Shown: positions 22,578 to 41,856, numbered from the stretch's first letter. The stretch: DNA of 64,000 nucleotides from Candidatus Omnitrophota bacterium (GCA_018824145.1 JAHJHC010000088.1:2696-66695), one strand, 5' to 3'. Notes: a model not told the origin generated them from the sequence alone. Made by a program: numbers and translations.

Positions 22578-22621
22578 TGAGGATTATGCGGGAGAAAAGA
22601 ATGGATGGAGGCTGATTTGTT

Positions 22622-23785: not shown

Positions 23786-23792
23786 GATTTTT

Positions 23793-26631: not shown

Positions 26632-27397
26632 AATATTATCATTTATCCGCAAAGATGCAATAATAAACATGAGTTATAGAACTATTTTTTTGATGTCTTT
26701 TGTAAGAATAATATCTTCCACGTTGATTTTCTTTTTTATGGCTAAATTATTTCGCAAACCGGAATACTTCCCGTTTGTATTAATAGGCATTGCATTTACC
26801 TCATATTTATACACTTCTCTCGGAACTTTTTCAAGTAGATTTAGAGACGAACAAGCTGCAGGAACTTTAGAGGCTATGTTGGTAGCGCCGACTAAAACAA
26901 AGGATATATTTATAGGGATCGGGGCATGGGATTATTTGTTCACTACTTTTAGAGTGTTTATATATATATTATTGGGGGTTCTGTTTTTTGGGGTTAATTT
27001 AAATAATGCTAATATATTAGCAGCAATATTGATACTATGTCTCAGTATAATTTGTTTTAGTTGCATGGGAATTAGTGCCGCAGGTCTTGTTTTAATCTTT
27101 AAAAGAATGAATCCCGTGACATGGATAATAGGAGGATTTACTGGTCTTGTTGGAGGAGTATATTTTCCTGTAGAGATATTGCCGATATGGATAAGGGGTA
27201 TCTCATATATACTACCGCTTACATATTCATTGAAAGGACTTAGGGGTGCTCTGCTTTATGGCAATTCTATCAGAGAATTGATGCCAGAGATATTACTATT
27301 GTGTATCTTTATAATTGTTTTATTTCCACTAAGCACATTAATTTTTAAAAAAGCAATGAAAAAAACAAAAATAGATGGTAGTCTCGTGCATTATTAA
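26609..27397 (+). CDS. ABC-2 type transporter permease (Wzm/TagG-like)
   Basis: Six predicted TM helices in 262 aa. Start overlaps the ATPase gene. Confidence 0.8.
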   Translation: MPIMSIRKILSFIRKDAIINMSYRTIFLMSFVRIISSTLIFFFMAKLFRKPEYFPFVLIGIAFTSYLYTSLGTFSSRFRDEQAAGTLEAMLVAPTKTKDIFIGIGAWDYLFTTFRVFIYILLGVLFFGVNLNNANILAAILILCLSIICFSCMGISAAGLVLIFKRMNPVTWIIGGFTGLVGGVYFPVEILPIWIRGISYILPLTYSLKGLRGALLYGNSIRELMPEILLLCIFIIVLFPLSTLIFKKAMKKTKIDGSLVHY

Positions 27398-27402
27398 TCA
27401 GA

Positions 27403-27594
27403 ATGCCAGAAAAAGATAATATGGAAATAGAAAAAATATATCCGAAGATTAGTAGATTTAAAGATAACGGCAAACATTATTTCCGGGAAAAAGGCGATAA
27501 CTCTAGTAGTATAGGGGCTATTCAAGAAAATGATGTAATAGGAAGGTTGGAATATGTAAAAGAAGGTGAAGGGCAGAGCAAGAAATATTTGTAG
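27403..27594 (+). CDS. Small hypothetical ORF (63 aa)
   Basis: Open frame only. Hydrophilic, with no recognisable motif. Confidence 0.25.
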   Translation: MPEKDNMEIEKIYPKISRFKDNGKHYFREKGDNSSSIGAIQENDVIGRLEYVKEGEGQSKKYL

Positions 27595-27615
27595 ATAGTT
27601 TAATCTGTATTAGAG

Positions 27616-27649
27616 ATTGCTTCGGCCACCTTTCGGTGGCCTCGCAATG
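27616..27649 (+). terminator. Stable stem-loop (GGCCACC-TTTC-GGTGGCC closed by an ATTGC/GCAAT outer stem) downstream of the ABC genes; possible terminator or rearrangement scar
   Basis: Perfect 7-bp GC-rich inner stem plus a 5-bp outer stem. No canonical U-tract follows. Confidence 0.35.
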
Positions 27650-27770
27650 ACAGGCTTTTAGAAGAGCTGGACCGTTACGGTTTGGAGAGGCATTGGCGAG
27701 TAGGAAACTTTCCTGAAAAAAATCTTCCCAATGAGCCATATATATAATATACTTATGGGGTTTGGTGGGA

Positions 27771-28307
27771 TTTGCAGAAGATTCAGAAAAGTCCATAGGC
27801 ATACTTCAACCAAAGATTTTACAAATAGACCGGAAGAATATTTATTCTTGAGACACATATCTCCCCAATATAAAAAGGTTCCATGACATAAGTAGAGGGG
27901 AGCTTAATAATGGTAAATTCGAGAAGGTAAAGGATATCTTTGGAGCTTGCTCTGCAACGGCACTGTACAAAAGACAGATGTTGGAGGAAATAAGGGAAAG
28001 TACAGGCTATTTTGATGAGAGATTCTTTTTCTTGGTAGAGGATGTAGATTTAGCCTGGCGTGCACAGAGAAAAAGTTGGAAAGCAAGATTCTATCCTGGA
28101 GCAGTCTGTTATCACTATGGTAATTCGTCAGGTTTAGATAAGAAATTTAGACAATATCTGTCTTTTCGTAATAGGCACTATTCTATAATAAAAAATGAAG
28201 GGCTTAAAAATTATTTTAAAAAATTCTTTCCGTTGTTGTTTTATGATATTCCTCGGTTATTATATTTGGTTTTTACTAATCGTTATATCTTAAGAAAAAT
28301 AAATTAA
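27771..28307 (+). pseudogene. Truncated, degenerate duplicate of the 3' 60% of the GT2 gene at 24893-25840
   Basis: Nucleotide and protein collinearity with 25216-25840. Remnant reads SIGILQPKILQIDRK...YS*...FHDISRG...MLEEIRESTGYFDERFFFLVEDVDLAWRAQRK; parent reads SIGMFQPKILQIDRK...MLEEIKETTGYFDERFFFLVEDVDLAWRAQRK. An in-frame TGA at about 27849 disrupts the upstream part. Only the last 109 codons stay open. Confidence 0.7.
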
Positions 28308-28309
28308 AC

Positions 28310-29806
28310 ATGAGATTTTTTAAAGAGTATATTCTGAAAGATAAAATATTTAAAAATTGGCAGATTTTATTAATACTTATGGTTTCTTTATGTTTGCGCC
28401 TGTATCATCTTGGTTATCATGATTTCTGGTATGACGAGATAGGTACAGTGGATTATGCTCAACATCCTTGGAATAATTGGAATGCCCCTTTTTACTGGAT
28501 ATTGCTTCATTTTTGGATAAAAGTTTTTAAAATTTCAGAATTCGGTTTACGTTTTCCTTCTTTAGTTTTTAGTTTTTTTTCTATAATTCTCGTTTTCTTA
28601 ATAGGAAAAAGACTTTTTAATAAGAAGGCTGGCCTTTTAGCTAGCATATTTATGGGGCTTTCTCCTTTTCATATTTGGTATGCTCAGGAAGCACGTGATT
28701 ACAGTATGTTATTATTTTGGGGTACGCTTTCCTCATGGTTACTCCTCAAAGCAATTAAAAAACAAAGATTGAAATCCTGGGTAATCTTTACAATGGTTTC
28801 TATAGCAGGGTTTTACACCAATTATTTTTATACTTTCCTTTTTGTCGCACATATTATTTTTGTTGTTACATTTTTTAAGCGTTTGAAATTAAAACTGAAG
28901 AATTTGATTCCCTTCTTTGTCGTTAGTCTGTGTTTTTCGCTATACTTAAACCGTTTTTTAGGCAAATTTTTTAGTGTCTGGCAGGGTTTTTGGATTCCTG
29001 AACCAGAAGTACGCTCTTTGGTTATTACTATAGAAAATTTTATTCTTGGTTATAACGCCAATTTCCCTTCATATCTCATTGTAAGCATTTTAATAGCAGT
29101 ATTTTTTACCATTGTAATTATAAAATTGAAAGATATCCGGTTTCGACCTGCAATTGTATTTTGTCTATATTTGTTCTTAACCCCCATTGTTTTAGCTTTT
29201 CTTTTTTCAAAAACATTTTTTTCGGTTTATCTTGATCGCGGTTTGATTGTTACAAGTCCCTATTTTTATCTGATATTATCTTTTGGCGTGTTTAGCTTGA
29301 ACAAAAGGTATTTAAGAACAGGTAGTCTGGTTATTTTATTTTCTTTAATTTGCATAGCCCTTTATGGGTATTATATGGATTGGATGCCTACATCTTCTTT
29401 TCATTATACAGGAGTCCATCTTAAAAAATCCATAAAGCCAGTAGTTAAATTTATAGAAGATGAGTTAAGAGTACGAGATAGGATTGTTTTTACTAACGAA
29501 TCAGTACTGCCATCTTTTCGGTTTTATAGTCCCCAAGAAAGATCTTTTCATTTTTTATTTGTACCAGGAGAGGCGTTCGACCCTTTTTCCCAAAGGCCGG
29601 TATATGAAAACAGATATTACCTTTCGACCTATAACTTAAGAGATTTTGAATTTGATAGATTATGGGTTATATCTTGCGATTGGTCAAGAGATGGGAGTTT
29701 AGACGGAAATTCTCAAGCAGTAAAAGATTTCTTGGATAGGAATTTTAGATTACAATTCATCCGAGAATTTGATGGATTATGGGTATTTAGATATGATACA
29801 TTTTAG
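28310..29806 (+). CDS. Polytopic membrane GT-C superfamily glycosyltransferase (ArnT/PMT family-like)
   Basis: More than 10 TM helices. First-loop DE motif (FWYDEIGTVDYA) is characteristic of GT39/GT83-type transferases. Confidence 0.6.
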   Translation: MRFFKEYILKDKIFKNWQILLILMVSLCLRLYHLGYHDFWYDEIGTVDYAQHPWNNWNAPFYWILLHFWIKVFKISEFGLRFPSLVFSFFSIILVFLIGKRLFNKKAGLLASIFMGLSPFHIWYAQEARDYSMLLFWGTLSSWLLLKAIKKQRLKSWVIFTMVSIAGFYTNYFYTFLFVAHIIFVVTFFKRLKLKLKNLIPFFVVSLCFSLYLNRFLGKFFSVWQGFWIPEPEVRSLVITIENFILGYNANFPSYLIVSILIAVFFTIVIIKLKDIRFRPAIVFCLYLFLTPIVLAFLFSKTFFSVYLDRGLIVTSPYFYLILSFGVFSLNKRYLRTGSLVILFSLICIALYGYYMDWMPTSSFHYTGVHLKKSIKPVVKFIEDELRVRDRIVFTNESVLPSFRFYSPQERSFHFLFVPGEAFDPFSQRPVYENRYYLSTYNLRDFEFDRLWVISCDWSRDGSLDGNSQAVKDFLDRNFRLQFIREFDGLWVFRYDTF

Positions 29807-31031
29807 CTCGATAAAAGAGACTGACATCGAGAGTCGGTTGGCTTTGCTTTTAGCAAGATGGATAATATATGATAATGGTTTTGAAAAGATAGAAAATTTA
29901 TTGATGCAGGAAAAGATCGAATGGAAGAAGTTCCGAGAGATCATTGTATATCATGAATTGTGTGCTTTTGCCTACATTTGTTTAAAAAAACATCTTTATT
30001 TGTTGCCTAATAACAGCATGGAGTTATTAAAAAAAGATTACTATTTTTGTTTAACCCATCAGGTTTTTTTATGGCGTGAATTCTTACGCATAGCACATAT
30101 TTTCAGAGATAAAAATATAGAGTTTACACCGTTAAAAGGAATAGCTTTTTTTATAGACAATATGTATGGTGAAAGAAGATATTTGAGACCCATGGTGGAT
30201 ATAGACCTTATGGTTAAAAAGGAAACGTTGCCTTTGGTTGAAAGAATCCTGGGAAGTCTTGGGTATGAGAAACATTTGGGAGGCAATAAAGAGGATTATT
30301 GGAAAAGCCAAAACTATCATTTACCATTTATAAAAAAAAGACAAAAAGGATTGCCTTGTATGGCCGAAATGCATTGGGACCTAGATTATAAAAGAAAGAA
30401 TCCCTTGCTGCCTTATTTATGGAGCAGGATAAAAAAAATGCGTTTGGATGGCAAAGAGATATCCCTCCTTAGTCCAGAAGATACACTTTTTAGTATTGCG
30501 CTCCATCATCGCCGATTCGGAAAAATGCTTTGTTTAAAGAATGTTTGTGACACAGCAATGTTGCTGGAACGATACAAGGATGATATTGACTGGCATTACA
30601 TATTAAGGGAGGCAGAAAGAGAGGGGATGAGGACGATACTATATTTTATATTTACTCAGGCAACTCTTTTGCTTGACGTAAAAATACCCCCTTTCGTTTT
30701 AAGAAGACTAGATATACCTGGGTATAAGAGGCAGTTAATTGAACGATTTATTCTTAGCAATACTTTTGCGGTAGAGTCGGGGTTAAATAACTATAAATCT
30801 CTTTATCTCAGGACTCATTTTTTAATTTATGATAATATATGGGATCCAGTTAAATGTGTACTAGGTCTTCCTCTAGAACAATTTGCTAAATTTTATAGTT
30901 TACAACCTTATTCCAGAAGAACTAACTTGCTTTACAAGATTCGTTATCTATATTTCTTGAAGAGTCTTCTTGTGATTATACTAAATGCAACAACTAAAAG
31001 AATGTCGAAGTTGCTAAAAAATAAGAAATGA
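29769..31031 (+). CDS. Uncharacterised nucleotidyltransferase family protein (NTP_transf_5-like)
   Basis: MVDIDLMVKK motif typical of minimal nucleotidyltransferase folds. Members of this family co-occur with HprK-related kinases and PqqD/rSAM genes. Confidence 0.55.
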   Translation: MMDYGYLDMIHFSSIKETDIESRLALLLARWIIYDNGFEKIENLLMQEKIEWKKFREIIVYHELCAFAYICLKKHLYLLPNNSMELLKKDYYFCLTHQVFLWREFLRIAHIFRDKNIEFTPLKGIAFFIDNMYGERRYLRPMVDIDLMVKKETLPLVERILGSLGYEKHLGGNKEDYWKSQNYHLPFIKKRQKGLPCMAEMHWDLDYKRKNPLLPYLWSRIKKMRLDGKEISLLSPEDTLFSIALHHRRFGKMLCLKNVCDTAMLLERYKDDIDWHYILREAEREGMRTILYFIFTQATLLLDVKIPPFVLRRLDIPGYKRQLIERFILSNTFAVESGLNNYKSLYLRTHFLIYDNIWDPVKCVLGLPLEQFAKFYSLQPYSRRTNLLYKIRYLYFLKSLLVIILNATTKRMSKLLKNKK

Positions 31032-31246
31032 CAATCACTCTCGTATTTCCACTTTTAATGGCAGAACGGAATTTTATGGTGAGAAGATTTCTTTTTGAAT
31101 GTACTAAAGAAATAGATTGGAAGGGAATTAATGAGATGGGAAAGAAATTGTTAAATAAACCTAAAAAATCGGCTACAGAATAAATTTTTGAGTCATTCTC
31201 ATGCTCATATGTTAATTCATGCCGCTTTAAAATGAAAAGTTCTCCT

Positions 31247-31274
31247 TTGAACATAGCTGAAGATATGGTAAAAT
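31247..31274 (+). promoter_or_regulatory. Putative sigma70-type promoter: TTGAAC, 16-nt spacer, TGgTAAAAT extended -10
   Basis: Read directly from sequence, 23 nt upstream of the ATG at 31297. It lies in the only sizeable intergenic gap (31032-31296) of this block. Confidence 0.35.
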
Positions 31275-31296
31275 TTGCTTGTAAATCGGATAGGAC

Positions 31297-32694
31297 ATGA
31301 TGAAAACCGTGAAATTTTCTATAGGATATAACCATGACATGGGATTGTTAGATCTTTTGGAGGAATTTAAAAGTAATATTGAAGCAGTTTATTTCCCTGT
31401 TCCTTATCAGTTTTTAAGTTCAGGTAGAAATCTTCCTCAGGGAAAAGATTACATTGGCGAAATTGTAAAAATAATTAAGAAATGTAATTCATTAAATATT
31501 ATACCCGAATTATTATTGAATGCTACTTGTGATGGAGGAAGAGGATTAAAAAAGAACTTTCCAGCGGACATGATTAAATATATTAAGGAGTTGAAGGATT
31601 TAGGGTTAAAGAATATTATAGTTACAAACCCTGTTTATATTAGTAGGATCAGAAAAGAGATCAAAGATATTACCATCGAATCTTCCGTTAATTGTTATAT
31701 AAAAACCGTAGAACATGCTTCATATTTGAAAGATTTAGGCGTGGATATTTTAACTATTGATAGGGATATAAATAGAGATATACCTTTGATAAAAAAAATC
31801 AAAAAATCTACCGGACTTAAAATAAAGATAATGCTTAACGAAGGGTGCTTGAAAAATTGCCCTTTCAGAAATGTTCATTATAATTATCTTTCTCATAGTA
31901 CTACGAAGGAAAATTCTCAAAATAGCATTCTTTCAGATTATTTTTGTTATACTATATATTCAAAAAATCCTGAAAAAGTATTTAAAACACCGTTCATACC
32001 GCCAGAGGCATTGGGATATTATATTGATTTTGTGGATTATTTTAAGTTATCTACCAGAGTATTTGATTTACCCAGGATAAAGCGATGCTTGGAGGCTTAT
32101 AAAGAGCAGAGATTTAGCGGTAATTTATTAAATATATTAGATAGCCCAGGTCTTTCTTATTTTAGTTTCATAAATCATGATGCTTTGAAAAAAAACAACT
32201 ACTTTTTAAAGATGCTTAAATGTGACGAGAATTGTGCCGAATGTAATTATTGTAATAGATTAAAGCAAGAAGCGGCTATTATAAATACCAGTTTATTGAA
32301 AGGAGAAGAAAGAAACAAAGAAGATGCAAAAGCTATTGTTGTCTTTGAGAGACTTTTAAAAGATTTCCCAAAGGAATCTGCTATTTATTTAGGTTTAGCA
32401 AAAGCATATTTACACTTTAAAAAGTATAAAGAAGCTATTGAGATTTTGAGTAAAGCCTTATCTTTTAATTTAAATAACGCTAACATTTGCTATCTGTTAG
32501 GTGTTTGTTATGTAGGGGTAGAAGACTTTAATAATGCAATAGAGAATCTTAAAAAAGCCAAAGAAAAAGGTTTTAAGAGTGCTAGAGTAAATTTTTTACT
32601 TTCAGGATGTTACAGAAGAATCAAGATGAAAAAGAAAGCGCTTAGAGAATTAGATGAAGGGATTCAAAAGATAAAAGAGGTAAATGTGGTTTAA
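31297..32694 (+). CDS. Hypothetical protein with an N-terminal domain of unknown function, a C4 Cys cluster (CDENCAECNYC) and C-terminal TPR repeats
   Basis: TPR-like helical repeats (AIYLGLAKAYLHFKKYKEAIEIL; ANICYLLGVCYVGVEDFNNAIENL). I could not assign the N-terminal domain securely. Confidence 0.6.
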   Translation: MMKTVKFSIGYNHDMGLLDLLEEFKSNIEAVYFPVPYQFLSSGRNLPQGKDYIGEIVKIIKKCNSLNIIPELLLNATCDGGRGLKKNFPADMIKYIKELKDLGLKNIIVTNPVYISRIRKEIKDITIESSVNCYIKTVEHASYLKDLGVDILTIDRDINRDIPLIKKIKKSTGLKIKIMLNEGCLKNCPFRNVHYNYLSHSTTKENSQNSILSDYFCYTIYSKNPEKVFKTPFIPPEALGYYIDFVDYFKLSTRVFDLPRIKRCLEAYKEQRFSGNLLNILDSPGLSYFSFINHDALKKNNYFLKMLKCDENCAECNYCNRLKQEAAIINTSLLKGEERNKEDAKAIVVFERLLKDFPKESAIYLGLAKAYLHFKKYKEAIEILSKALSFNLNNANICYLLGVCYVGVEDFNNAIENLKKAKEKGFKSARVNFLLSGCYRRIKMKKKALRELDEGIQKIKEVNVV

Positions 32695-33595
32695 AGCAGT
32701 ACGCTATCGGGAGAACTATTTTATGAAAAATCATATGTTTAGCTGCGAATTTTTTAAACTAGGGCCTTTTACCGTTTGTATTAATTTTGAAAATGATGAA
32801 TTAAGAAAAGAGGTAACCTCTCTTTTTAAAGAAAACTGGCCGGTAATTAGTGTTTATCAGATAACACCTAATGTAGTAGACTGTTATTGTCATGTTTTTA
32901 TCAGTGAGAGGTATTATAAAGATTATATTGAAAAAACTCCAAAAGATAATACGAGCTATTGTTATGCGGCAGATAATAGATTATTGACCTATTCTTCGGA
33001 TTTTAAGCTTATAAGATACTTTATAAACACGACAAGCAATTATATTGCATATATTTTAGACTTTATAGGCAAATTATTTATTTTTTCACCATTTTTATTA
33101 AGGCATAATTCGCTTATGTTGCATGCCGCCGGAGTAGTTTATAAAAATAAGGGATTTATTTTTGCAGGCCCTGCAGGTATAGGTAAAACAACTATTTGTA
33201 AGATTCTCTGTCGTGGCGGTGCGTATCCTTTATCGGATGATAGAGTTATCGTGCGTAATGAAGGGGGTAAATTCACGGTTTATCCTTTATGGATTTTCTC
33301 TTCGGATGGCATGGACTTGAGCTATGAATTTATGAAATTGCAATTTCATTCTTTTCCATTGAAAGCGATATTTTTTTTACAACAAAGTAAAAAATTTGCT
33401 TTAAAAGAGATGAATTTTTTGGACAAGATAAGTATGATTTCAAAAAACTCCCTTTTGTTTTCCGAGAACATCAGAGATTCGAGAGAGGATTTTTTTTTAA
33501 GCGTACACAGCATATCCAAAAATAAGCATATTTACAAGCTTTGCTATGATAGAAGCGATAAAATATTCCCTTTATTAGATTCTTATGATGAGTGA
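32684..33595 (+). CDS. HPr kinase/phosphorylase-related (HprK C-terminal domain-like) putative kinase
   Basis: LHAAGVVYKNKGFIFAGPAGIGKTT matches the HprK-like core (LHAsav...G.gvL..G.sG.GKS) and includes a P-loop. Confidence 0.6.
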   Translation: MWFKAVRYRENYFMKNHMFSCEFFKLGPFTVCINFENDELRKEVTSLFKENWPVISVYQITPNVVDCYCHVFISERYYKDYIEKTPKDNTSYCYAADNRLLTYSSDFKLIRYFINTTSNYIAYILDFIGKLFIFSPFLLRHNSLMLHAAGVVYKNKGFIFAGPAGIGKTTICKILCRGGAYPLSDDRVIVRNEGGKFTVYPLWIFSSDGMDLSYEFMKLQFHSFPLKAIFFLQQSKKFALKEMNFLDKISMISKNSLLFSENIRDSREDFFLSVHSISKNKHIYKLCYDRSDKIFPLLDSYDE

Positions 33596-34877
33596 TCGTT
33601 TTATAGTTTTAAAAAGAAAACATAAAAAATCGTGGTTATTTGACAAACTCGAAGGGAAAATTTTTTCTCTCAATCGGACCGCAGCCGAAATATTAAAGTT
33701 AATATGCGAAAATAGAAAAAAAGAGGAAATAAAGAAAATTTTTACCGAGAAATTAGATATTAAAGATGTCCGGATTTTCAAAAAAGATTTTGATCGCTTT
33801 AAATCCATGGTCGAAAGTAAAAAAATATCCGATGTTTCGCATAGAAAAATTCCTCCTCGTGCACTTAGAAATATACAGTTGTGTTTGACCTATAGGTGTA
33901 ATCTATCTTGCCGCCATTGTTATCAGAGTAATCATAATGCTGTCGGTTATATGCCGTTAGGATTAGTAAAAAAAGCATTAGGAGAAATTTCAAGGATGCA
34001 TAGTATTGAATCAGTGGTTTTATCAGGAGGCGAGCCTTTTTTACATAAAGATATTTTTGCAATATTTGAATCCGTCTCTTCTCTTTTAGACTTGGGCAAA
34101 AGGGTTAGGGTATGTACTAACGGAACTATTTTTAGACCGAGCGAGATTAGGAGAATAGACAATAGAATGGAGTTTTTCGTTAGTCTTGATGGAAGCACAG
34201 AGAAACAAAACCGTATAATTAGAGGCCCTGGTAAATTTCGAGCTACTTTGCGAATAATAGAATCCCTCGTAAATAATGGCAACGTAGTAATAATTAATTT
34301 TGTTGTAAACCGCTATACCTGGAAAGATATGCTAAAAATATGTAGTTTAGGTAAAAAATTAGGGATATCCAGAATAAATTTTCTACCAACGATTTTTATA
34401 AATAAGTCCGAAGCCTATGTGCGAAGACTGATTATACCTCGGGAGAAACGGGTTGCTTTTTTAAAAGAAAAAGAAAAGATAAAGCATCAATTTGACAGGA
34501 ATTTTTTTTTGGGGAGATTCCTAGAGCTGAATTTTCTTTCGGGTACTTCTAAAAGAAAATTCCCGATTATTTTGCTACCTTGCCCTGCAGGGACTCAAAA
34601 GTGTTATGTCGAACCAAGTGGGGATGTGGTCCCTTGTTATTATCTAGGAGGACATGTGGGGGGGAATTTTAAAAGTTTTTCCATGAAACAAATTTGGAAT
34701 TTCCCTGCTGTGCAATTTGAACGCGCACGTTTTCCTTATATTGTTGACGAAGAAGATATGCCTGGATGTACGGATTGTGAATATGTTTTTCAATGTTTCG
34801 AGGAAAATTTCGATAATGTATTATTTTCAAATTTACGCGGGGAAGTAATAAAAGAAATTATCTGTTATAAACTGTAA
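33585..34877 (+). CDS. Radical SAM/SPASM domain protein with an N-terminal PqqD-like (RRE) domain
   Basis: N-terminal region of about 90 aa resembles PqqD (LNRTAAEILKLICENRKKEEI). rSAM motif LTYRCNLSCRHC plus GGEPF. The C-terminus carries SPASM cysteines (CPAGTQKCYVEPSGDVVPCYYL ... GCTDCEYVFQC). Confidence 0.8.
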   Translation: MMSDRFIVLKRKHKKSWLFDKLEGKIFSLNRTAAEILKLICENRKKEEIKKIFTEKLDIKDVRIFKKDFDRFKSMVESKKISDVSHRKIPPRALRNIQLCLTYRCNLSCRHCYQSNHNAVGYMPLGLVKKALGEISRMHSIESVVLSGGEPFLHKDIFAIFESVSSLLDLGKRVRVCTNGTIFRPSEIRRIDNRMEFFVSLDGSTEKQNRIIRGPGKFRATLRIIESLVNNGNVVIINFVVNRYTWKDMLKICSLGKKLGISRINFLPTIFINKSEAYVRRLIIPREKRVAFLKEKEKIKHQFDRNFFLGRFLELNFLSGTSKRKFPIILLPCPAGTQKCYVEPSGDVVPCYYLGGHVGGNFKSFSMKQIWNFPAVQFERARFPYIVDEEDMPGCTDCEYVFQCFEENFDNVLFSNLRGEVIKEIICYKL

Positions 34878-34918
34878 TAGGATTTTTTTCAACCTATTGC
34901 CATCAAAATTCCACAAAA

Positions 34919-36286
34919 ATGAAGACACCAAAGTTGGCTTTTGTTGAACGATCAGAAAGTGATTTTATCAGCGCGAAAATTGCTAACGAAAACTTTATAA
35001 ATTTTTTATCCAAATACATGGAGGTAGACAGAATTTCTGTAGCAGAAAAAAAAGATTTAAAAGAGACCTTTGAAAACATCGAAAATGATAAATTCGACTA
35101 TGTATATATCGATAGTTTTAATTTTCTTTTAGAGACGTTTCTTTTAAGGGATAGATATCAACTAAATATATCTATAATTGCCCGCCTCGATTCAATTATT
35201 CACCAAGAACAAAATAACTTTGCCTATCTAATACCATTGATAAGGGAAGGTGATATGCTTTTTACCCCATCACGATATTCTCAAAATTCTTACTACAGAA
35301 TATCAGATAAGGTAAAAATCCATTGCATTCCACACGCCATAGATATAAATTTAATCCAAAAAAATATGAACCCAAATATTAAAAACGATAAAATTATCAT
35401 AACTTATTTGGGAAGGTTGGCAGACCAAAAAGGTGTTAGCATATTAATAGAATCTATGCCTCGAATTTTTTCTGAAGTAAGAAATGTACAATTGAATGTA
35501 ATAGGTCCATTAAGTGGGGATAGAATAACTAATTATCCGCAAACAGAATATGTTAAAAAAATAAAGGAGCGCGTAAAAGAACTAAATTTAGCTGAAATTA
35601 TCCACTTTAAGGGAGTCCAATTTGGTGCGGATAAATATAAACTTTTATCTCAGTCAGTAATCTTGGTTAACCCGACTATTGCTGCGGAAGAGACTTTTGG
35701 TATAGTAAATATAGAGGCTTTGTCGTGTGGAGTACCAGTGGTAGCAACCAATTGGGCAGGTATAAATGAAATAATTAATGATAAAATAAATGGAGTCCTG
35801 GTAGATATCGAGTGTAAGAAGTTTAAGAGAGGTAATTTCACAGGTAAGAGTTATAAAGTGAACCAGAGACAACTGGTGAATTCAATAGTAAGTATTTTGC
35901 AAAGCAAGACACTCCAGCTAAAATTAAAGCAAAATGCCTTGATAAGTGCAAAAGATTATGATTATCGAAAAATAATGCCTTGTCTTGTCGATTTATTAAA
36001 TAAGACAAATAGAGGGCGGTTACAAAAGAGGGCGTGGGGATCAATAAAAACTAAAAAAGCAACAGATTTTGACTATCTTTATAATAGGGATTTCCTTTTT
36101 TTTCTTTATTACTTTAAATATAATTTATATACATATTCTGAGTTGTATCAAAAATTTTTCGGCAGTGACGTTTTATCTTTCAATGAACCGAAAGCAGGGA
36201 GAAATTTTAACATTAAAGAATCTGATAAGGATAGGAATAGGAACATTCTCAGGGTTTACTCAGATTATTTAATGTTAAGAGATTAA
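34919..36286 (+). CDS. GT4 (GT-B fold) glycosyltransferase
   Basis: NIEALSCGVPVVATNWAGINEIINDKINGVLV near the C-terminus, a GT4 E-x7-E region. Confidence 0.75.
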   Translation: MKTPKLAFVERSESDFISAKIANENFINFLSKYMEVDRISVAEKKDLKETFENIENDKFDYVYIDSFNFLLETFLLRDRYQLNISIIARLDSIIHQEQNNFAYLIPLIREGDMLFTPSRYSQNSYYRISDKVKIHCIPHAIDINLIQKNMNPNIKNDKIIITYLGRLADQKGVSILIESMPRIFSEVRNVQLNVIGPLSGDRITNYPQTEYVKKIKERVKELNLAEIIHFKGVQFGADKYKLLSQSVILVNPTIAAEETFGIVNIEALSCGVPVVATNWAGINEIINDKINGVLVDIECKKFKRGNFTGKSYKVNQRQLVNSIVSILQSKTLQLKLKQNALISAKDYDYRKIMPCLVDLLNKTNRGRLQKRAWGSIKTKKATDFDYLYNRDFLFFLYYFKYNLYTYSELYQKFFGSDVLSFNEPKAGRNFNIKESDKDRNRNILRVYSDYLMLRD

Positions 36287-36306
36287 AAAGGTACGATTTA
36301 AATTAC

Positions 36307-36335
36307 TTTACAAGATAAGTGGCGTGTTGTATAAT
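36307..36335 (+). promoter_or_regulatory. Putative sigma70-type promoter: TTTACA, 17-nt spacer, TATAAT
   Basis: Read directly from sequence. Followed by RBS GGGAGG and the ATG at 36355 of the PqqD gene. Confidence 0.4.
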
Positions 36336-36354
36336 TTCATTGGCTGGGAGGCAT

Positions 36355-36672
36355 ATGATGAAATGGAAAGATGAAAGACCTATCAGGAAAAATAATACTG
36401 TCCTAAGGGAAATAGAAGGCGAGAGTCTGTTGGTTCCGATCGCCCAGTTTGATGACCCATTTTTGATTTTGTACACCCTTAATGACGCAGGCAGATTCAT
36501 TTGGGATATTATCGGTACTTCTTGTTCGGCAGGAGAGATTGTCAAAAAGTTGATGGAACAATATGAAGTCGATGAAAAATGCGCCCAAAAAGACGTAGAA
36601 ATGTTTCTTTCCCTCTTGCATGATAAAGATTTGATTTCTTTCAATAAGGTAGAAAATGACCGAAACATGTAA
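36355..36672 (+). CDS. PqqD-family protein (RiPP recognition element / peptide chaperone)
   Basis: LNDAGRFIWDIIGTSCSAGEIVKKLMEQYEVDEKCAQKDVEMFLSLLHDKDLI matches the PqqD consensus LNetgafiWeLldG.rtveeIv..l.e.ydv..e.a..Dv.eFl..L...gLi. Start chosen at the ATG after the GGGAGG RBS; the ORF track starts it at 36319. Confidence 0.75.
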   Translation: MMKWKDERPIRKNNTVLREIEGESLLVPIAQFDDPFLILYTLNDAGRFIWDIIGTSCSAGEIVKKLMEQYEVDEKCAQKDVEMFLSLLHDKDLISFNKVENDRNM

Positions 36673-37825
36673 TCGTTATTATAGTACGCGTTATTTTTTA
36701 AGCACTCGTGATAGAAATAAACAATCAGCTACTCATAAGGTAGGCATAAAAGCTATTTTGTTTTCTTTGTTTATCAATCTTACCCATTGCTGCAATTTAG
36801 ACTGTTCAATATGTTTAGTGAAGAGTGATTTGTCTTCAAGAAAAAAACAAGAACTAGATACACGCACTATAAAACAAATTTTAGATGAAGCAGCTTCTTT
36901 AGGAGCGTTAAATGTTGGTTTTTCTGGAGGAGAACCTTTATTACGCGAGGACTTCGAAGATGTTTATGTTTATGCAATTAAAAAAGGATTTTTAGTATCA
37001 ATATATTCTAATATCACTTTATTAACTAGTTCTACACTTGATCTTTTTCAAAGATATCCCCCTGACAGGATTCAGGTTTCCGTTTATGGTTTATCTAGAG
37101 AGATATATGAGAAAGTTACAAGGGTTCCAGGATCTTTCGACTCTTTTATGAATAACCTTGCTGGGTTGAGAGAGAGAAGAATTAGGCTTAGCTTGCAATT
37201 TACCCTTTGTTCCAGTAATGAAAAAGAATGTGAACATTTCATCCATTCTTTCCCAAAGAAAGATTACGAGCTTAAAAATGCTACAATTTATTTATATAAA
37301 CATATGAGATCCGATGCTAGGAGAAATGCTTTAATTGAACAGGTGATGTTGCCGCCAGCTAAGATGGCTTATTATGTGTTTAAATATCAGTTTAGTAGCC
37401 GGATGGGCTTCTTGTTTTCTCCTTCTGATAGGAGAAAGATAAGGGGTCAAAATAAACTTTTTTGGAGATGTTTAAAAGATATAGAAACACTTAGTATTAG
37501 TCCTTCAGGTGAATGTTGCTTTTGTTACGAGATGCCTGTACCCGAAAATAGACGTCAGTATAAACCAGGTAAGTTGAAGGAAATTGTACGGGTGCTTTTA
37601 GAAGAGAAAAAAAATGCAATCATGCCGGATATAGAATGTCGAGATTGTCCTAATCTTTTATATTGCGAGTGGTGTCCACTTTATGCTTACGTATTTATGG
37701 GAAAGTTAGCACCTATTCCTTATTTCTGCGAAGTTATGAAAGAATTAAATTTACTGGGTGTGCCTATGCTTACAGAGGAGGTAATTTATGCCGGAAAAGA
37801 AAAGGAACAAAAAGAAAAAGTATGA
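36656..37825 (+). CDS. Radical SAM/SPASM domain peptide-modifying enzyme
   Basis: rSAM cluster motif LTHCCNLDCSIC, GGEPL motif, and C-terminal SPASM cysteines (CCFCYE ... CRDCPNLLYCEWCP). Start overlaps the end of the PqqD gene. Confidence 0.85.
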   Translation: MTETCNRYYSTRYFLSTRDRNKQSATHKVGIKAILFSLFINLTHCCNLDCSICLVKSDLSSRKKQELDTRTIKQILDEAASLGALNVGFSGGEPLLREDFEDVYVYAIKKGFLVSIYSNITLLTSSTLDLFQRYPPDRIQVSVYGLSREIYEKVTRVPGSFDSFMNNLAGLRERRIRLSLQFTLCSSNEKECEHFIHSFPKKDYELKNATIYLYKHMRSDARRNALIEQVMLPPAKMAYYVFKYQFSSRMGFLFSPSDRRKIRGQNKLFWRCLKDIETLSISPSGECCFCYEMPVPENRRQYKPGKLKEIVRVLLEEKKNAIMPDIECRDCPNLLYCEWCPLYAYVFMGKLAPIPYFCEVMKELNLLGVPMLTEEVIYAGKEKEQKEKV

Positions 37826-37952
37826 AGCACCTTGCTTAGAAGAAGTATCTATTCAGGAAGGTGGAGGAATAGCTACTGGTTGTTCTAACTGGAGAGGTGT
37901 ACATGAACTCTGCAGTTGTGGTTGCGAAAATGGGGGTAGCGCGGTCAACTAA
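37788..37952 (+). CDS. Candidate RiPP precursor peptide (54 aa): MPEKKRNKKKKYEAPCLEEVSIQEGGGIATGCSNWRGVHELCSCGCENGGSAVN
   Basis: Not in the supplied ORF track because it is under 60 aa. The ATG at 37788 is preceded by a perfect Shine-Dalgarno GAGGAGG with a 5-nt spacer. It has a Lys-rich leader, a Gly-Gly-Gly junction and a C-terminal core with 4 Cys. It lies directly 3' of, and overlapping, the rSAM/SPASM gene. Confidence 0.6.
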   Translation: MPEKKRNKKKKYEAPCLEEVSIQEGGGIATGCSNWRGVHELCSCGCENGGSAVN

Positions 37953-38019
37953 TGAGATTGCAAATGATAATTTGTAATAAGATTTTAGAAGATAGGCACC
38001 AGTTTCTTAAACTTAAGCC

Positions 38020-38547
38020 ATGATAAACCAAATAATAAAAGAGCTTGAAATAGAAAGGATAAAAAGTCTTTTAGACGATAGGAAATACTTCTGGTTAAGT
38101 GTTCGTGGTAAGTCTATGGAGCCAGTTTTAAGAGCTGATTATAAAGTAAAAATTAGAAAAGTAGATGTAAATAAAATTAAAGTCGGAGATATTATAGTTT
38201 TTGGCAGGGGACAAATTGTCTGCCACAGAGTTATTAGGAGGTTGAAGTTTTTTAACGAAACTTACTTTATCCATAAAGGAGATAATGTCGTTATTGGGGA
38301 CATAGTTACTGGTAGCGATTTAATCGGTAAAGTAGAAACAATAATAGACGACAAAAAACAGGAAATCAATAAAGAAGCCTGGCAATATCGCGCCCCTAAT
38401 ATGAAAAGGTTTGCGGAATTGCACTATATTTATTTAATCTGTGTCCTAGTAAAAAAAAGAATTTTAAAAGAGAGAAGGAATAAGTTTACAGAATTATTAA
38501 AGAGAATTTTTTGGAAAATAATAGTAACCCCGCTAAATGCCGTCTAA
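38020..38547 (+). CDS. S26-type signal peptidase I-like (S24/S26 superfamily) peptidase lacking an obvious N-terminal TM anchor
   Basis: GKSMEPVL (compare the GDSMxPTL Ser box), CHRVIRRL (compare the KRVIG Lys box) and KGDNV (compare the GDNR box). Confidence 0.55.
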   Translation: MINQIIKELEIERIKSLLDDRKYFWLSVRGKSMEPVLRADYKVKIRKVDVNKIKVGDIIVFGRGQIVCHRVIRRLKFFNETYFIHKGDNVVIGDIVTGSDLIGKVETIIDDKKQEINKEAWQYRAPNMKRFAELHYIYLICVLVKKRILKERRNKFTELLKRIFWKIIVTPLNAV

Positions 38548-38660: not shown

Positions 38661-39390
38661 ATGGCCTATGTCATAGATATATCTAGGCTAACCAAAGAAT
38701 TTATACCTGCTAAAATTCCCCATCACTTTATAGTACATCTTTTTAAAAAACAAAGACCTGTTTTGGCGATCAATAAAGTTAGCCTTCAAATTAAAAAAGG
38801 TGATACATTTGCACTGGTAGGGCCAAATGGTGCTGGGAAAACTACTCTGATCAAGATCTTGTCCGGTCTTATCTTGCCTACAAAAGGAAGAGCCAAAGTT
38901 GCTGGTTATGACATTTTAGACGAAAAGATGATTAAAGTGTCAGTGGGCCTAGTGAGTGGCGATGAGCGAAGTTTTTATTGGAGGTTAACTCTGTGGCAGA
39001 CCCTTTCTTTTTTTCTGCACTTTATAACCTTTCTGCTACACAGTCTAAAAGTAGAATAGAGAAATTAAGCGGTTTATTAGAGATTACTTCACAGTTAGAT
39101 AAGAGATTTCAGGAATGTTCTACCGGTGTAAAAGAGAGGGTAGTTATTGCTCGTGGCCTTTTGAATAATCCCAAAGTTTTATTTATGGACGAACCTACGA
39201 AAAGTTTGGATTTTGAAACAGGTAGAAATTTAAGAAGCTTTACAAGAAATAGATTAGTGAATAAAGAGGAATGGTGTTATTTGTCTTTAAATGATGATGC
39301 GAAGAAAGCTAACGCTAAAAGCTATCAGTATTTCATGTTTAATTCCGTAGGGTTAAGAGTCAGAGGGGAGGAGTATGTTTTGCCGGAGGA
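38661..39390 (+). pseudogene. ABC transporter ATP-binding protein paralog (of 25825-26631) disrupted by a frameshift near 38985-39000, with a degenerate C-terminus
   Basis: ORF 38661-39059 has Walker A GPNGAGKTT ... DERSFYWRLT. ORF 38978-39502, in another frame, continues with PFFFSALYN ... the signature-like CSTGVKER ... Walker B LFMDEPTKSLD. Together they are collinear with the intact paralog. Confidence 0.6.
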
Positions 39391-39399
39391 ACCTCAGGT

Positions 39400-39744
39400 T
39401 GTACAAGATAATATCATTGGAATAGAAAACCGTGCAGGGGATACCTGGAAATTGAAACGATGGAATAAATATTCTGAATTGATAAGTTTATTAAAGATAT
39501 AAATGATTGTAAGATTATTGTAACCGGAGATACTTTGGCGATGCATCTTGGTTTGGGATTGAAAAAGAAAACAGTGGTAATGTTCGGACCTACTTCAAGT
39601 TCTGAGATATACTCTTATGGCAGAATGATAAAAGCAGTTTCTCCTATTACGTGCCAATGTTGTTATAAAAGGGAATGTTTAAAGAATCCAAGTTGCATGG
39701 ATTTGATTCCAGTCAAAAAGGTCTTTGATGTAATATTAGATTAA
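39400..39744 (+). pseudogene. GT9 (heptosyltransferase-like) C-terminal fragment spread over two frames
   Basis: Frame 2 reads GDTWKLKRWNKYSELISLL (compare GT9 K-x-W-p-x-e-x-f-x-x-L). Frame 1 reads CKIIVTGDTLAMHLGLGLKKKTVVMFGPT (compare GT9 lvItnDSGpmHLAaAlg.PtValFGpT). There is no N-terminal half. Confidence 0.5.
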
Positions 39745-40947
39745 AGCCAGCAATATCCAGAAAAAAAGACCTACCTGAGGAATGAAATATGTGTTGTCTA
39801 TTAGATTGTGCGAGAAGAAAGCTAACCCGCCTAACAGTATAATGCTATTTTTCGGGTCTTCCTTGAATTTCCTTAAAAATAGGATGATTAAATATACTAC
39901 GCTTAGAAGTCCTAATATACCTGTTTCAACGCCTTGATGTAGGAGTATGTTGTGTGCATAGCGTGTATTTGTGGTTACGCCAACCTTATACTTTAGGAAT
40001 ACTTCTTTGAAGTTTCCTGCGCCTACGCCGGTTATAGGATGGGCTTTTATAATAGCCATTGAAGTGCGCCAGTAATTTAGGCGCTGGGTTATGGAATTTT
40101 GTGGGTTTTCAAGGTTCGTCAGGCGTTCCCATCGGTTTATTAGAATGAAAGTAATGACAATAGCTATAAGGATAAAGGTTGTTATAGGGATTATCTTTTG
40201 TTTTTTGAGGGATTTGTATGAAAGGATGACTAATATGGTTAACGCGAAGGTAAGGCTTAACCATGCCCCCATTGATTTTGTGAAGATAAGGGCAATAGCT
40301 ATTAAAAGTGATGCTGCGTACCAAAATAAGGGACGGAGCCCATTTTTTAAAAAATGGGCTCCGTCCCTTATTAAATGCAATGAAAAGAAAAACATTATTA
40401 TCAAATATCCCCCAAAAACAGTAGGGGAGGGGAATGTTCCTATTGTGCGCTTTGCGATTAATATATCTTTTGCATAGGAAGATTTTAAGAGGAAGTCGCT
40501 ATTTATCTTTCTGAGATAGTCTAAAGTGCGCTGGTATCCCCAGAAATATTGATATATTGAGTATATGCTTATTATTACACTAGCTATGACAATGGTTTTA
40601 ATCAGTAAATTTTTCTGCTTTTCGTTAAGTTGACTTACAGTAAAGAAAATAGCGAAAAAACTCACGAACTTAATAGTTTCTCTGATGGAATTCTGGAAAT
40701 TGACCGAGAAGACAGTGGATATAGTATAGGCCAAGAAAATCAGTAAGATCGGAACATGGAAGGCATTTTTTGAAATCATTTTTTTATTAACGAGCAAGGT
40801 TAGAATTGCAAGAAATATAATAACATTCTGATAGTAAGTTTCTACCGTTGGATAAGCAAGGCCGGAGAAAAAAGGCCTAATAAAGACAAAGAATACTAAA
40901 GGGATAAATATGAAATATGATAAAGGTTTAGATTTTGAGGAAGTCAT
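39736..40947 (-). CDS. O-antigen ligase / Wzy_C family polytopic membrane protein
   Basis: More than 10 TM helices and a YAHNILLHQGVETGILG motif resembling the Wzy_C / O-antigen ligase conserved region. The only minus-strand gene in the first 50 kb. Confidence 0.5.
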   Translation of the reverse strand: MTSSKSKPLSYFIFIPLVFFVFIRPFFSGLAYPTVETYYQNVIIFLAILTLLVNKKMISKNAFHVPILLIFLAYTISTVFSVNFQNSIRETIKFVSFFAIFFTVSQLNEKQKNLLIKTIVIASVIISIYSIYQYFWGYQRTLDYLRKINSDFLLKSSYAKDILIAKRTIGTFPSPTVFGGYLIIMFFFSLHLIRDGAHFLKNGLRPLFWYAASLLIAIALIFTKSMGAWLSLTFALTILVILSYKSLKKQKIIPITTFILIAIVITFILINRWERLTNLENPQNSITQRLNYWRTSMAIIKAHPITGVGAGNFKEVFLKYKVGVTTNTRYAHNILLHQGVETGILGLLSVVYLIILFLRKFKEDPKNSIILLGGLAFFSHNLIDNTYFIPQVGLFFWILLALI

Positions 40948-40962
40948 GATATAATTTATTTT

Positions 40963-41856
40963 ATGATATCAGTAATTATTGTAAATTACAATAAGAAAGA
41001 TTTATTGAAGAGATGTCTGGATTCTGTTAGGGGACAGGGTTTTAAGGACATAGAGATTATTGTGGTGGATAATGCGTCTCCGGACGATAGCGTTGAAATG
41101 GTTAGGATGTATTATCCTGAAGCTAAATTGATATGGAATACAAGAAATTTGCTTTTTTGTAAGGCATATAATCAGGGGATAGATGCCTCGAAAGGGAATT
41201 TTATAGTATGTTTAAATAATGATGTTGTCTTGGATAAAGATTATTTAAAAGAGGCCTTGTTTGCAATAGGTCTGGATAATAGAATTGGCATGGTCAGCGG
41301 CAAGATTTTAAGGGTGGACAAAAAGACAATAGATTCTGCGGGTCTTTTCCTGGGTAAGAATAGGAAACCTATCGAAAGAGGTTATGGAAAACAGGATGAA
41401 GCGCAATATGAAAAACCAGGTTATGTCTTTGGAGTGAGCGGTGCCTGCGCTTTTTTTAGAAGGAGCATACTCATGGATATAAAAGATGAGAATGGATATT
41501 TTGACGAGAGATTTGGTATGTATTATGAGGATCTGGATTTATGTTGGAGGGCACAGAAAAAAGGATGGAAGGCTTATTATTATCCGAAGGCTGTAGCATA
41601 TCATGTTAGATCTGCAACAGCAGTTGGCCGGATAGGGATAAAGAAAATAAACTTGCCTTACCTGACAGATAGTTTAAAGAGGATGTATATTAAGAATAGA
41701 TACTTATGCATGAAGAAAAATGATTCTCTGAGAGGAATTTTGTTGAACTTGCCGTTTATTATATGCTATGAGATGAAAATATGGTTATACATGTTTTTTA
41801 ATTTAGCTCTCAAGAGCTCTCAAGAGATTTTTCTTGACCGTGATAAAAAAACATAG
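40963..41856 (+). CDS. GT2 glycosyltransferase (rhamnosyltransferase-like), paralog of 24893-25840
   Basis: MISVIIVNYNKKDLLKRCLDSV ... VDNASPDDS ... YFDERFGMYYEDLDLCWRAQKKGW. Confidence 0.8.
   Translation: MISVIIVNYNKKDLLKRCLDSVRGQGFKDIEIIVVDNASPDDSVEMVRMYYPEAKLIWNTRNLLFCKAYNQGIDASKGNFIVCLNNDVVLDKDYLKEALFAIGLDNRIGMVSGKILRVDKKTIDSAGLFLGKNRKPIERGYGKQDEAQYEKPGYVFGVSGACAFFRRSILMDIKDENGYFDERFGMYYEDLDLCWRAQKKGWKAYYYPKAVAYHVRSATAVGRIGIKKINLPYLTDSLKRMYIKNRYLCMKKNDSLRGILLNLPFIICYEMKIWLYMFFNLALKSSQEIFLDRDKKT

Follow-up and report, generated by a model that had tools for sequence, protein, structure and literature searches.

A conserved small gene for a probable radical SAM/SPASM-modified peptide in a Candidatus Omnitrophota gene cluster

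The cluster and its small cysteine-rich gene

The DNA analysed here, referred to as the window, is a stretch of 64,000 nucleotides (nt) from a Candidatus Omnitrophota bacterium (GCA_018824145.1, JAHJHC010000088.1:2696-66695). It contains a Cys-rich 54-amino acid (aa) open reading frame (ORF, 37788-37952), which is preceded by the genes of a PqqD-family protein and of a radical S-adenosylmethionine enzyme with a SPASM cysteine pattern (rSAM/SPASM, enzyme B), and followed by a gene for a signal-peptidase-like protein. The first-pass annotation had listed these genes together with a promoter, a ribosome-binding site and a GAGGAGG Shine-Dalgarno sequence; all of them were recovered at the same coordinates, and the translation of the peptide was exact. 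It had also described them as a compact, co-directional unit. They are not a self-contained 2.2-kb module but the 3' end of a ~9-kb co-directional cluster (29769-38547) with a second rSAM/SPASM enzyme (enzyme A), a kinase, a nucleotidyltransferase (NTP transferase), a U32 protein and a GT4 glycosyltransferase (Table 1), and the gene order of this cluster is kept in orthologous contigs.

The ORFs of the window were compared with the contigs encoding the closest homologues of enzyme B, namely L006 (72 % identity), L010 (50 %) and L012 (39 %). In each of them an ORF of 55-57 aa adjoins the rSAM gene at its 3' end or overlaps it there; it encodes MSEKKRNKKKKYKPPLLEELSVQEGGNVATICSHWRGVWGSCDCHCEQGTDSPIN in L006, MKKKNAKKKKYKAPRLEEIIVEDTKETIASACSHWRGVWGGCGCHCEQAPGISVN in L010 and MRRKKMDTKKKYTAPHLEEITAKSIKGASATCGHYCGYSPGSSCKTIGGSCTPATQD in L012. 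Thus, the search for homologues beside rSAM genes that the first-pass annotation had suggested returned orthologous small ORFs at the equivalent position. In a codon comparison of the orthologous peptides, the ratio of nonsynonymous to synonymous change (pN/pS) was 0.38-0.51, and 0.40-0.51 outside the rSAM overlap, with synonymous change near saturation (pS 0.62-0.85). Synonymous changes occur in the core Cys and Gly codons of the window, L006 and L010. The leader motif of the peptide, described below, is carried by no other ORF of the window. The length of the ORF is no better than chance, as dozens of random ORFs of at least 50 codons lie nearby; because chance ORFs of this size abound, it is conservation and not length that makes the ORF non-random. 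Judged by these comparisons, the 54-aa ORF is almost certainly a real, conserved precursor gene.

GAGGAGG ends 6 nt before the ATG, and the ORF overlaps the rSAM stop by 38 nt. All four loci have a Shine-Dalgarno sequence, 6-8 nt ahead of the ATG (AGGAGG/AAGGAG in L006, L010 and L012). The first-pass annotation had allowed that GAGGAGG might belong to the rSAM coding sequence only. However, in L012 the Shine-Dalgarno sequence lies between the genes, where it cannot be explained as part of the rSAM coding sequence. The overlap itself is kept in the window, L006 and L010 but not in L012, and translational coupling of enzyme B and the precursor is possible. The Lys-rich start of the precursor (37788-37825) shares its DNA, in another frame, with the Lys/Glu-rich C-terminal tail of enzyme B, of which residues 372-385 are disordered (predicted local distance difference test, pLDDT, < 50).

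The ORF had been called unannotated. This holds for the NCBI record of the metagenome-assembled genome (MAG) with a sequence identical to the window (L005), which omits it, but not for three independent sets of gene calls, those of Logan, ENA and JGI, which have it.

Contig L006 also has, at 15244-16812, a second PqqD-rSAM pair (P0005) and then a fifth, decayed precursor copy (...ETVASACSHWQGIHSGCDC), with a frameshift in an A-run at its start and a diverging C-terminal end. The 3' end of this copy is overlapped by the gene of an ISL3 transposase, encoded on the other strand (16739-17230), which suggests that the copy was disrupted by an ISL3 insertion sequence. A 48-aa ORF of L006 (15084-15230) was rejected as a peptide gene, since by eye it resembles a remnant of an rSAM C-terminus (compared with enzyme A of the window). 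Likewise, a 51-aa ORF of the window (31028-31183), for which the independent contig L001 has a gene call, was rejected as another precursor because it lacks the leader motif, carries one Cys only and matches no family.

The PqqD gene starts with the ATG at 36355 behind a GGGAGG ribosome-binding site, and the enzyme B gene (start 36656) overlaps its end (36672). The promoter assigned to these genes, with TTTACA (36307-36312) and TATAAT (36330-36335) separated by a 17-nt spacer, is the best plus-strand match (11/12) within 29-40 kb of the window. Upstream of the PqqD gene of L006 (9577-9605) both hexamers are kept, with a diverged 17-nt spacer and diverged flanks. On the other hand, the number of promoter-like sites in 29-40 kb equals that of shuffled sequence (46 observed versus 47.1 expected), and L010 has no such site, with 13 nt between the genes. 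An internal promoter for the PqqD-rSAM-precursor-peptidase sub-operon is thus plausible from the sequence, but not universal because L010 leaves no room for one.

The upstream genes of the cluster are conserved to different extents. The NTP_transf_5 gene is found at the equivalent place in L001, L006 and L010, and the gene for the U32 domain fused to TPR repeats is kept in L006 and L010. The GT4 gene lies between the two rSAM modules in L006 as well, and is absent from L010. The kinase matches NCBIfam ScmC, HprK_rel_B and HprK_rel_A, all under their cutoffs; precomputed Pfam annotation assigns PF27840 (ScmC) to a product identical with it, and its translation contains the Walker A motif GPAGIGKTT. 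L006 (11717-12805) and L010 (4271-5347) have extra stand-alone U32 genes besides the fused type, followed by genes for a DUF7411 protein, a small protein with TPR repeats and a 278-aa protein that has no annotation. The U32 family includes both proteases and O2-independent hydroxylases. Because of the latter, an anaerobic peptide hydroxylation step is conceivable by analogy.

The cluster is surrounded by a polysaccharide/envelope locus (window 15338-29806 and 39736-41856) with several GT1, GT2 and GT4 genes. Immediately downstream of the peptidase gene, a frameshift divides an ABC ATPase into two overlapping ORFs, with ABC_tran profile positions 2-70 in one ORF (38661-39059) and 80-136 in the other (38978-39502). 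The ATPase has no membrane partner and is found in the identical state in L001; possibly it is a decayed exporter gene. Behind it, the C-terminal portion of a GT9 domain is weakly matched, and both 38661-39502 and 39535-39744 resemble gene debris.

Table 1. Features of the cluster and of the surrounding polysaccharide locus, in window coordinates.
Feature	Coordinates	Strand	Evidence or remark
NTP_transf_5 nucleotidyltransferase, LppN-like tailoring enzyme	29769-31031	+	Pfam PF14907, E 1.3e-40
Peptidase_U32 domain fused to TPR repeats	31297-32694	+	Pfam Peptidase_U32, E 2.7e-7, and several TPR models
ScmC/HprK-like P-loop kinase, LppK-like	32684-33595	+	NCBIfam ScmC 4.3e-11, HprK_rel_B 7.6e-10, HprK_rel_A 5.4e-8
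rSAM/SPASM maturase A, weak N-terminal PqqD-like (RRE) segment	33585-34877	+	Pfam Radical_SAM 4.9e-20, SPASM 4.5e-8
GT4 glycosyltransferase	34919-36286	+	Pfam Glycos_transf_1 2.9e-27
Putative sigma-70-like promoter, TTTACA-17-TATAAT	36307-36335	+	11/12 match
Discrete PqqD-type RiPP recognition element (RRE), lasso/LPP type	36355-36672	+	Pfam PqqD 9.9e-15
rSAM/SPASM maturase B, no fused RRE	36656-37825	+	Pfam Radical_SAM 2.1e-22, SPASM cysteine pattern
Shine-Dalgarno sequence of the precursor gene, GAGGAGG	37775-37781	+	6-nt spacing to ATG
Predicted leader, residues 1-30	37788-37877	+	Lys-rich N-terminus, Y12-x-x-P15-x-L17-E-E, predicted cleavage after I-A-T30
Predicted core, residues 31-54, GCSNWRGVHELCSCGCENGGSAVN, and stop codon	37878-37952	+	Four Cys, candidate phosphosite Ser33
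Archaeal/ER-type signal-peptidase-I-like (SipW/LppS-like) serine peptidase	38020-38547	+	TIGR02228 1.6e-13, Pfam S24
ABC ATPase split by frameshift, two overlapping ORFs	38661-39502	+	ABC_tran profile matches
XrtA/PEP-CTERM-type Asn-synthase (exopolysaccharide, EPS, type) amidotransferase	20700-22577		Polysaccharide locus
ABC-2 transporter genes	25825-27397		Polysaccharide locus
PMT_2	28310-29806		Polysaccharide locus
Wzy_C	39736-40947		Polysaccharide locus
LPP, linear polyphosphorylated peptides; RiPP, peptide made by the ribosome and modified post-translationally; ER, endoplasmic reticulum.

Maturases, and predicted leader recognition and removal

The four peptides share K9-K11, Y12, P15, L17, E18, E19, C32, G37 and C44 as invariant residues. 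Their leaders carry the motif KKKY-x-x-P-x-LEE, which reads Y12-E-A-P15-C-L17 in the window. The cysteines of the window peptide form the pattern C32-x9-C42-x-C44-x-C46, and the core C-S-[NH]-W-R-G-V-x3-C-x-C-x-C-E is conserved in the window, L006 and L010. The L012 peptide keeps four Cys with rearranged spacing and has lost the Trp. In the orthologues neither Cys16 nor the GGG of the window peptide is conserved, so the GGG junction that the first-pass annotation had placed between leader and core finds no counterpart.

The PqqD protein had been expected to act as an RRE. Its best NCBIfam match is lasso_PqqD_Bac, the lasso chaperone of Bacillota (6e-12), and its closest relatives in the PDB are PbaB1 (9x90_B), LppB (9x8z_B, 5.3e-5) and TbiB1. 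LppB belongs to the linear polyphosphorylated peptides (LPP) of Bacillota, a peptide family first reported in 2026, which are made by lppA/K/B/S/D/N clusters and are stated to be restricted to that phylum (Popov et al., Nat Commun 2026, PMC13381572). LppB and PbaB1 were solved with their leaders, whose [Y/W]xxPx[L/V] motif docks into two pockets; in LppB, N33 holds the kink at the Pro in place, D70 forms a bond with the Tyr hydroxyl, and F74 divides one pocket from the other (Popov et al. 2026, PMC13381572). In an ungapped HMMER alignment, N33/Y60/D70/F74/L83 of LppB correspond to N43/Y70/D80/F84/L93 of the window protein. These comparisons support a lasso/LPP-type RRE, which would bind the leader through Y12-x-x-P15-x-L17. 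Covariation between a W or Y leader and the Tyr-bonding residue of the RRE was considered and rejected, as this residue is Asp in 73 of 75 sequences regardless of the leader.

Enzyme B has the CX3CX2C motif of rSAM enzymes (C46/C50/C53) and a seven-Cys SPASM pattern (C272-x12-G285-x4-C290, C328-x2-C331-x5-C337-x2-C340, C358), and all these residues are invariant in an alignment of 43 homologues. Compared with the SPASM motif CX9-15GX4C...CX2CX5CX3C...C the pattern is complete, with a last spacing of x2 and not x3, which bears out the SPASM assignment of the first-pass annotation. An rSAM with a fused RRE is a trait of sactipeptide systems. Enzyme B has no such fusion, and the N-terminal PqqD segment of enzyme A (residues 23-60, E 0.0014) remains below threshold in Pfam (19.3 bits versus a cutoff of 23.4). 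RRE-guided rSAM modification of the 54-aa peptide is considered likely.

The peptidase encoded at 38020-38547 has 175 aa. It scores 50.8 bits against the archaeal-type signal peptidase I model TIGR02228 (NCBIfam cutoff 51.85) and E 6e-6 against Pfam Peptidase_S24. It aligns with human SEC11A over GKS32MEP, CH69RV and KGD88N, and is thus of the ER/archaeal S26B type with a Ser-His-Asp set, whose S32/H69/D88 match the spacing of S29/H68/D93 in LppS. No convincing membrane helix was found in the protein (maximum 19-residue hydropathy 1.19), in agreement with the absence of an N-terminal anchor noted before. In L010 and L012 the peptidase gene also lies 3' of the precursor. The proposal that this S26-like peptidase removes the leader has an experimental precedent in LppS, the RRE-dependent leader peptidase of LPPs, which cleaves at FET/AQS (PMC13381572). 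By this analogy, RRE-dependent removal of the leader by the window peptidase is reasonably likely.

The pattern [IVA]-[AS]-[TSA]/x-C is the only site that obeys the -3/-1 small-or-aliphatic rule in register across the four peptides, with candidate cleavage at IAT/GCS in the window, VAT/ICS in L006, IAS/ACS in L010 and ASA/TCG in L012. It lies three residues beyond the GGG. Because of this pattern and the LPP site FET/AQS, cleavage after Thr30 (IAT/GCSNWRG) is put forward tentatively, at slightly less than an even chance, which would give the 24-residue core GCSNWRGVHELCSCGCENGGSAVN. By eye, T/xxS-N-W-R of the window resembles T/AQS-(N/W)-(W/N) of LPPs, and Ser33 is at +3 of the predicted site. 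In LPPs, core Ser3 is polyphosphorylated and NTP_transf_5 is a core gene of the clusters (PMC13381572). Phosphorylation of Ser33 can be suggested by analogy as a candidate modification, and is rather doubtful.

The wider family and its relation to known systems

Among 8,000 candidates scored, 2,446 homologues of enzyme B were found at E <= 1e-10, and a profile search with the 43-sequence alignment returned at least 452 relatives in species-representative genomes. Searching genome contigs with the single enzyme B sequence returned nothing, and a search of metagenome contigs with the five closest rSAMs gave, among the matches listed, short segments of <=44 % identity and no new close loci. The hosts of the family are Desulfobacterota, Chlorobi, methanogens, Aminicenantes, Planctomycetota and Omnitrophota. 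In 80 genome loci fetched for a wider survey (L013-L092), a cassette of an rSAM, a PqqD protein and an enzyme B homologue recurs, and NTP_transf_5 is frequent. A ScmC-like ORF was detected in 30 of the loci and an S24 peptidase in 14.

Unbiased all-against-all clustering of the intergenic small ORFs of these loci gave one dominant family, with 83 peptides in 59 of the 80 loci. Its leader, KK-x-W-x-x-P-x-L-x-V-L-x-R-G-x-P-E-E-x-V-L-x-x-C-K, is followed by a core of ~30 aa with usually three Cys (2-4). A terminal Ser is present in 69 of the peptides, and exactly six residues follow the last Cys in 64. In 20 loci the precursor lies directly downstream of the enzyme B orthologue, as in the window. 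Examples are found in L020 (3985-4185), L023 (204-389) and L068 (6119-6277), and L030 has five copies. Where these peptides are named at all, they are called "hypothetical protein". When the window peptide and five peptides of the wider family were searched against Pfam and NCBIfam, no family was found, and the sole trace was to a paeninodin leader (E 0.27). Compared with the wider family, the window peptide has a Tyr leader, no CK, a CxCxC pattern and a C-terminal Asn. By sequence, it is a rare divergent branch of the wider precursor family.

The first-pass annotation had named the SCIFF/ranthipeptides as the closest known analogue. No SCIFF or ranthipeptide precursor model of NCBIfam or Pfam is matched by the window peptide at E up to 10, and the gene and sequence comparisons place the LPP family, together with SynChlorMet-like cassettes, closer. 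Like LPP clusters, the window cluster has a SipW-like archaeal-type signal peptidase I with Ser/His/Asp near an RRE, a discrete lasso-type RRE with equal pocket residues and a YxxPx[L/V] leader, an HprK-like kinase with NTP_transf_5, and a location in a polysaccharide/glycosyltransferase locus. In contrast, LPP clusters lack rSAM enzymes, whereas the window has two rSAM/SPASM genes that are conserved in its relatives. In PMC13381572, "radical" and "SPASM" are absent from the text, and "radical SAM" and "Radical_SAM" from those supplementary files that were searched. LPP cores are Gly/Pro/Asn-rich and Cys-free, whereas the window core has four Cys. LPPs have an MsbA-type exporter, whereas the window has the broken ABC ATPase and an ABC-2 pair 9 kb upstream. 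The U32-TPR protein and the Omnitrophota host are further differences.

SynChlorMet systems share with the window an HprK-like kinase (ScmC), a PqqD homologue (ScmD), two PqqE-like rSAM/SPASM enzymes (ScmE and ScmF) and anaerobic hosts. However, the window proteins remain well under the equivalog cutoffs of TIGR04248-04251, with 42.7 bits versus 125 for ScmC, 18.7 versus 100 for ScmD, 61.1 versus 400 for ScmE and 56.2 versus 400 for ScmF. The PqqD, ScmC-like and rSAM representatives of L013, L078 and L082 are also under the cutoffs. No precursor is known to have been identified for SynChlorMet. By sequence, the cassette is SynChlorMet-related but uncurated, and the present comparison identifies a precursor for it.

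Sactipeptide and ranthipeptide systems resemble the window in the Cys-rich core, the rSAM/SPASM maturase, the RRE-mediated leader recognition and the nearest structures, SkfB and CteB. They differ in that the RRE of the window is discrete, lasso-type and not fused, that its peptidase is SipW-like, and that a kinase, an NTP transferase and a glycosyltransferase are present. Lasso peptides of the paeninodin type have a [W/Y]xxPxL leader, a discrete PqqD of the B1 type as RRE, an HprK-like kinase and NTP_transf_5. Paeninodin is phosphorylated on its C-terminal Ser, and the wider family resembles it in the W variant of the leader and the mostly C-terminal Ser. In contrast, no lasso cyclase or B2 peptidase was seen among the scanned genes of the window cluster, which has rSAM enzymes instead. 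Literature searches returned no account of this gene combination, and surveys mention RiPP biosynthetic gene clusters of Omnitrophota only generically. Compared with LPP, SCIFF/ranthipeptides, the SynChlorMet equivalogs and lasso peptides, the window cluster departs from each in at least one defining feature that was tested. It is best classed as encoding an RRE-dependent rSAM/SPASM RiPP and is not categorically new.

Proposed maturation, competing readings and significance

Taken together, the genes and motifs make it fairly likely that the 54-aa ORF encodes the precursor of a RiPP made by the ~9-kb cluster in the following way. The discrete PqqD protein would bind the leader via Tyr12-x-x-Pro15-x-Leu17, as lasso and LPP RREs do, and present the core to enzyme B, itself without an RRE. 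The same peptide is probably also a substrate of enzyme A, whose N-terminus is a fused RRE-like segment. The two enzymes would cross-link C32, C42, C44 and C46, most likely by Cys-to-carbon thioethers. The ScmC-like kinase, with NTP_transf_5 and GT4, may phosphorylate and also decorate a Ser, with Ser33 as the best candidate. The SipW-like peptidase would then remove the leader in an RRE-dependent manner, with cleavage predicted after Thr30. The chemical steps, their order, the cleavage site and the role of the product are all inferred; a tie of the product to the envelope or to polysaccharide is hinted at by the genomic context only.

In the AlphaFold2 model of enzyme B (pLDDT 79.3), the top Foldseek matches are SkfB, CteB, SuiB, PqqE and anSME (E 3e-11 to 2e-8, TM-score ~0.45-0.58), and the best PDB match of the enzyme B family profile is SkfB (6.5e-19). 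The best sequence and structure matches are thus thioether enzymes. An alternative, which is considered unlikely, is that the rSAMs make no thioether and instead form C-C or C-O links to Trp, His or Arg, epimerize residues or oxidize Cys on C-S-[NH]-W-R-G-V-[WH], in which case the CxCxC cysteines would form disulfides or bind metal. Conservation of Trp35, Arg36 and Gly37 equals that of the cysteines, and Trp-Arg-Gly adjoins Cys32. SuiB (Lys-Trp C-C), PqqE (C-C), the epimerase EpeE and anSME are Foldseek neighbours at nearly equal scores, and the NCBIfam matches to PqqE, MftC and WgkB are as good as that to the sactipeptide maturase StsB (58.7 bits, cutoff 625). The StsB, AlbA and SkfB models are all far under cutoff; the PapB model (NF047865) gives 57.7 bits for enzyme A (cutoff 340) and is not among the best 25 matches of enzyme B. 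The likeness to SkfB and CteB does not tell thioether formation apart from C-C, C-O or epimerase chemistry. In favour of thioethers, the four Cys are kept in all four orthologues even though in L012 their spacing is altered and the Trp is gone, and the cores of the wider family are defined mainly by their 2-4 Cys. Enzyme B sits among the peptide-modifying SPASM/twitch enzymes, and the models mildly favour thioether formation; by analogy, the chance that a thioether is formed on this peptide is put at about even.

It is improbable that the peptide, instead of being a secreted natural product, serves as a sacrificial scaffold from which a small cofactor or metallophore is derived, as in the pyrroloquinoline quinone (PQQ) and mycofactocin pathways with their RRE, rSAM/SPASM, peptidase and glycosyltransferase. 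The top NCBIfam match of enzyme B is PqqE (79 bits), followed by MftC (69 bits), PQQ leaders also carry a [Y/W]xxP motif, and the cluster has no intact dedicated exporter. The mycofactocin pathway includes a glycosyltransferase, as does the window cluster. However, both scores are far under the cutoffs of 381 and 265 bits, the C-terminus of the peptide is variable with no conserved C-terminal Glu/Tyr or Val-Tyr pair, and the cluster showed no genes for redox partners. Among loci the cores also differ widely, as is typical of natural products and not of cofactors.

That the 54-aa ORF is a chance frame in an AT-rich overlap, with GAGGAGG serving as rSAM coding sequence only, is very improbable. 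The abundance of chance ORFs, the omission from the NCBI annotation and the lack of a curated family would fit such a reading, but four loci, the most distant with a maturase of 39 % identity, retain the ORF and show purifying selection in its frame, its Shine-Dalgarno sequence persists even where intergenic, and the leader has the motif expected for the adjacent RRE. A paeninodin-like lasso peptide cluster, to which the YxxPxL leader, the lasso_PqqD_Bac match, the kinase, the NTP transferase and an Asn-synthase-like gene might point, can practically be dismissed, as that gene (20700-22577) lies 14 kb away and encodes a glutamine-hydrolysing EPS amidotransferase (TIGR01536 482 bits, cutoff 267; lasso cyclase model 247, cutoff 525), the scanned proteins gave no match to a transglutaminase-type B2 peptidase, for which no dedicated search was made, and positions 7-9 of the predicted core hold neither Asp nor Glu.

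Several observations weigh against the RiPP maturation proposed above. No curated RiPP maturase or precursor model of NCBIfam or Pfam reached its cutoff, the Pfam SPASM model does not match enzyme B, and the window peptide has no Pfam or NCBIfam family at E up to 10. The likeness of enzyme B to SkfB and CteB is low (TM-score ~0.5, 17-18 % identity). The Tyr-leader subfamily is tiny. Word-indexed and exhaustive HMMER searches with the window peptide matched only itself and the L010 peptide, and a four-sequence profile found no peptide beyond the known four, which makes four distinct sequences in 5.8 billion proteins. The sole ABC ATPase adjoining the cluster is frameshifted. When the peptides were aligned by MAFFT with two LPP precursors, the resemblance at the cleavage and phosphorylation sites was not recovered, and for this reason phosphorylation of Ser33 is only a lead. 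The peptides of the window subfamily end in Asn, whereas the wider family typically has a C-terminal Ser, which makes the target of the kinase uncertain.

As a broader and more speculative proposal, to which somewhat less than even credence is given, the window peptide may be the founding example of a rare Tyr-leader/CxCxC branch of a large, uncharacterised and uncurated RiPP superfamily of anaerobic bacteria and archaea, in which lasso/LPP-type recognition, Ser phosphorylation and RRE-dependent ER/archaeal-type signal-peptidase cleavage are fused with multiple rSAM/SPASM cross-links in a Cys-rich core. If this is true, the WxxPxL...CK...C-x6-Ser peptides would be the precursors of the wider SynChlorMet-like cassettes, and two biosynthetic logics, each known until now only on its own, would be combined. 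The window cluster would then yield a thioether-bridged peptide that carries phospho- or glyco-decorations and is produced from a cell-envelope polysaccharide locus.

The locus provides a concrete conserved substrate for an rSAM/SPASM and PqqD pair that no curated model names, with a key gene that the NCBI MAG annotation misses through small-ORF calling. A minimal co-expression set for new cross-link chemistry can be defined, comprising the precursor, PqqD and enzyme B, with or without enzyme A, the kinase and the peptidase. The SipW-like, RRE-dependent type of leader peptidase would be extended beyond Bacillota and into radical-SAM RiPPs, and a precursor family is indicated for a widespread SynChlorMet-related cassette of anaerobes.

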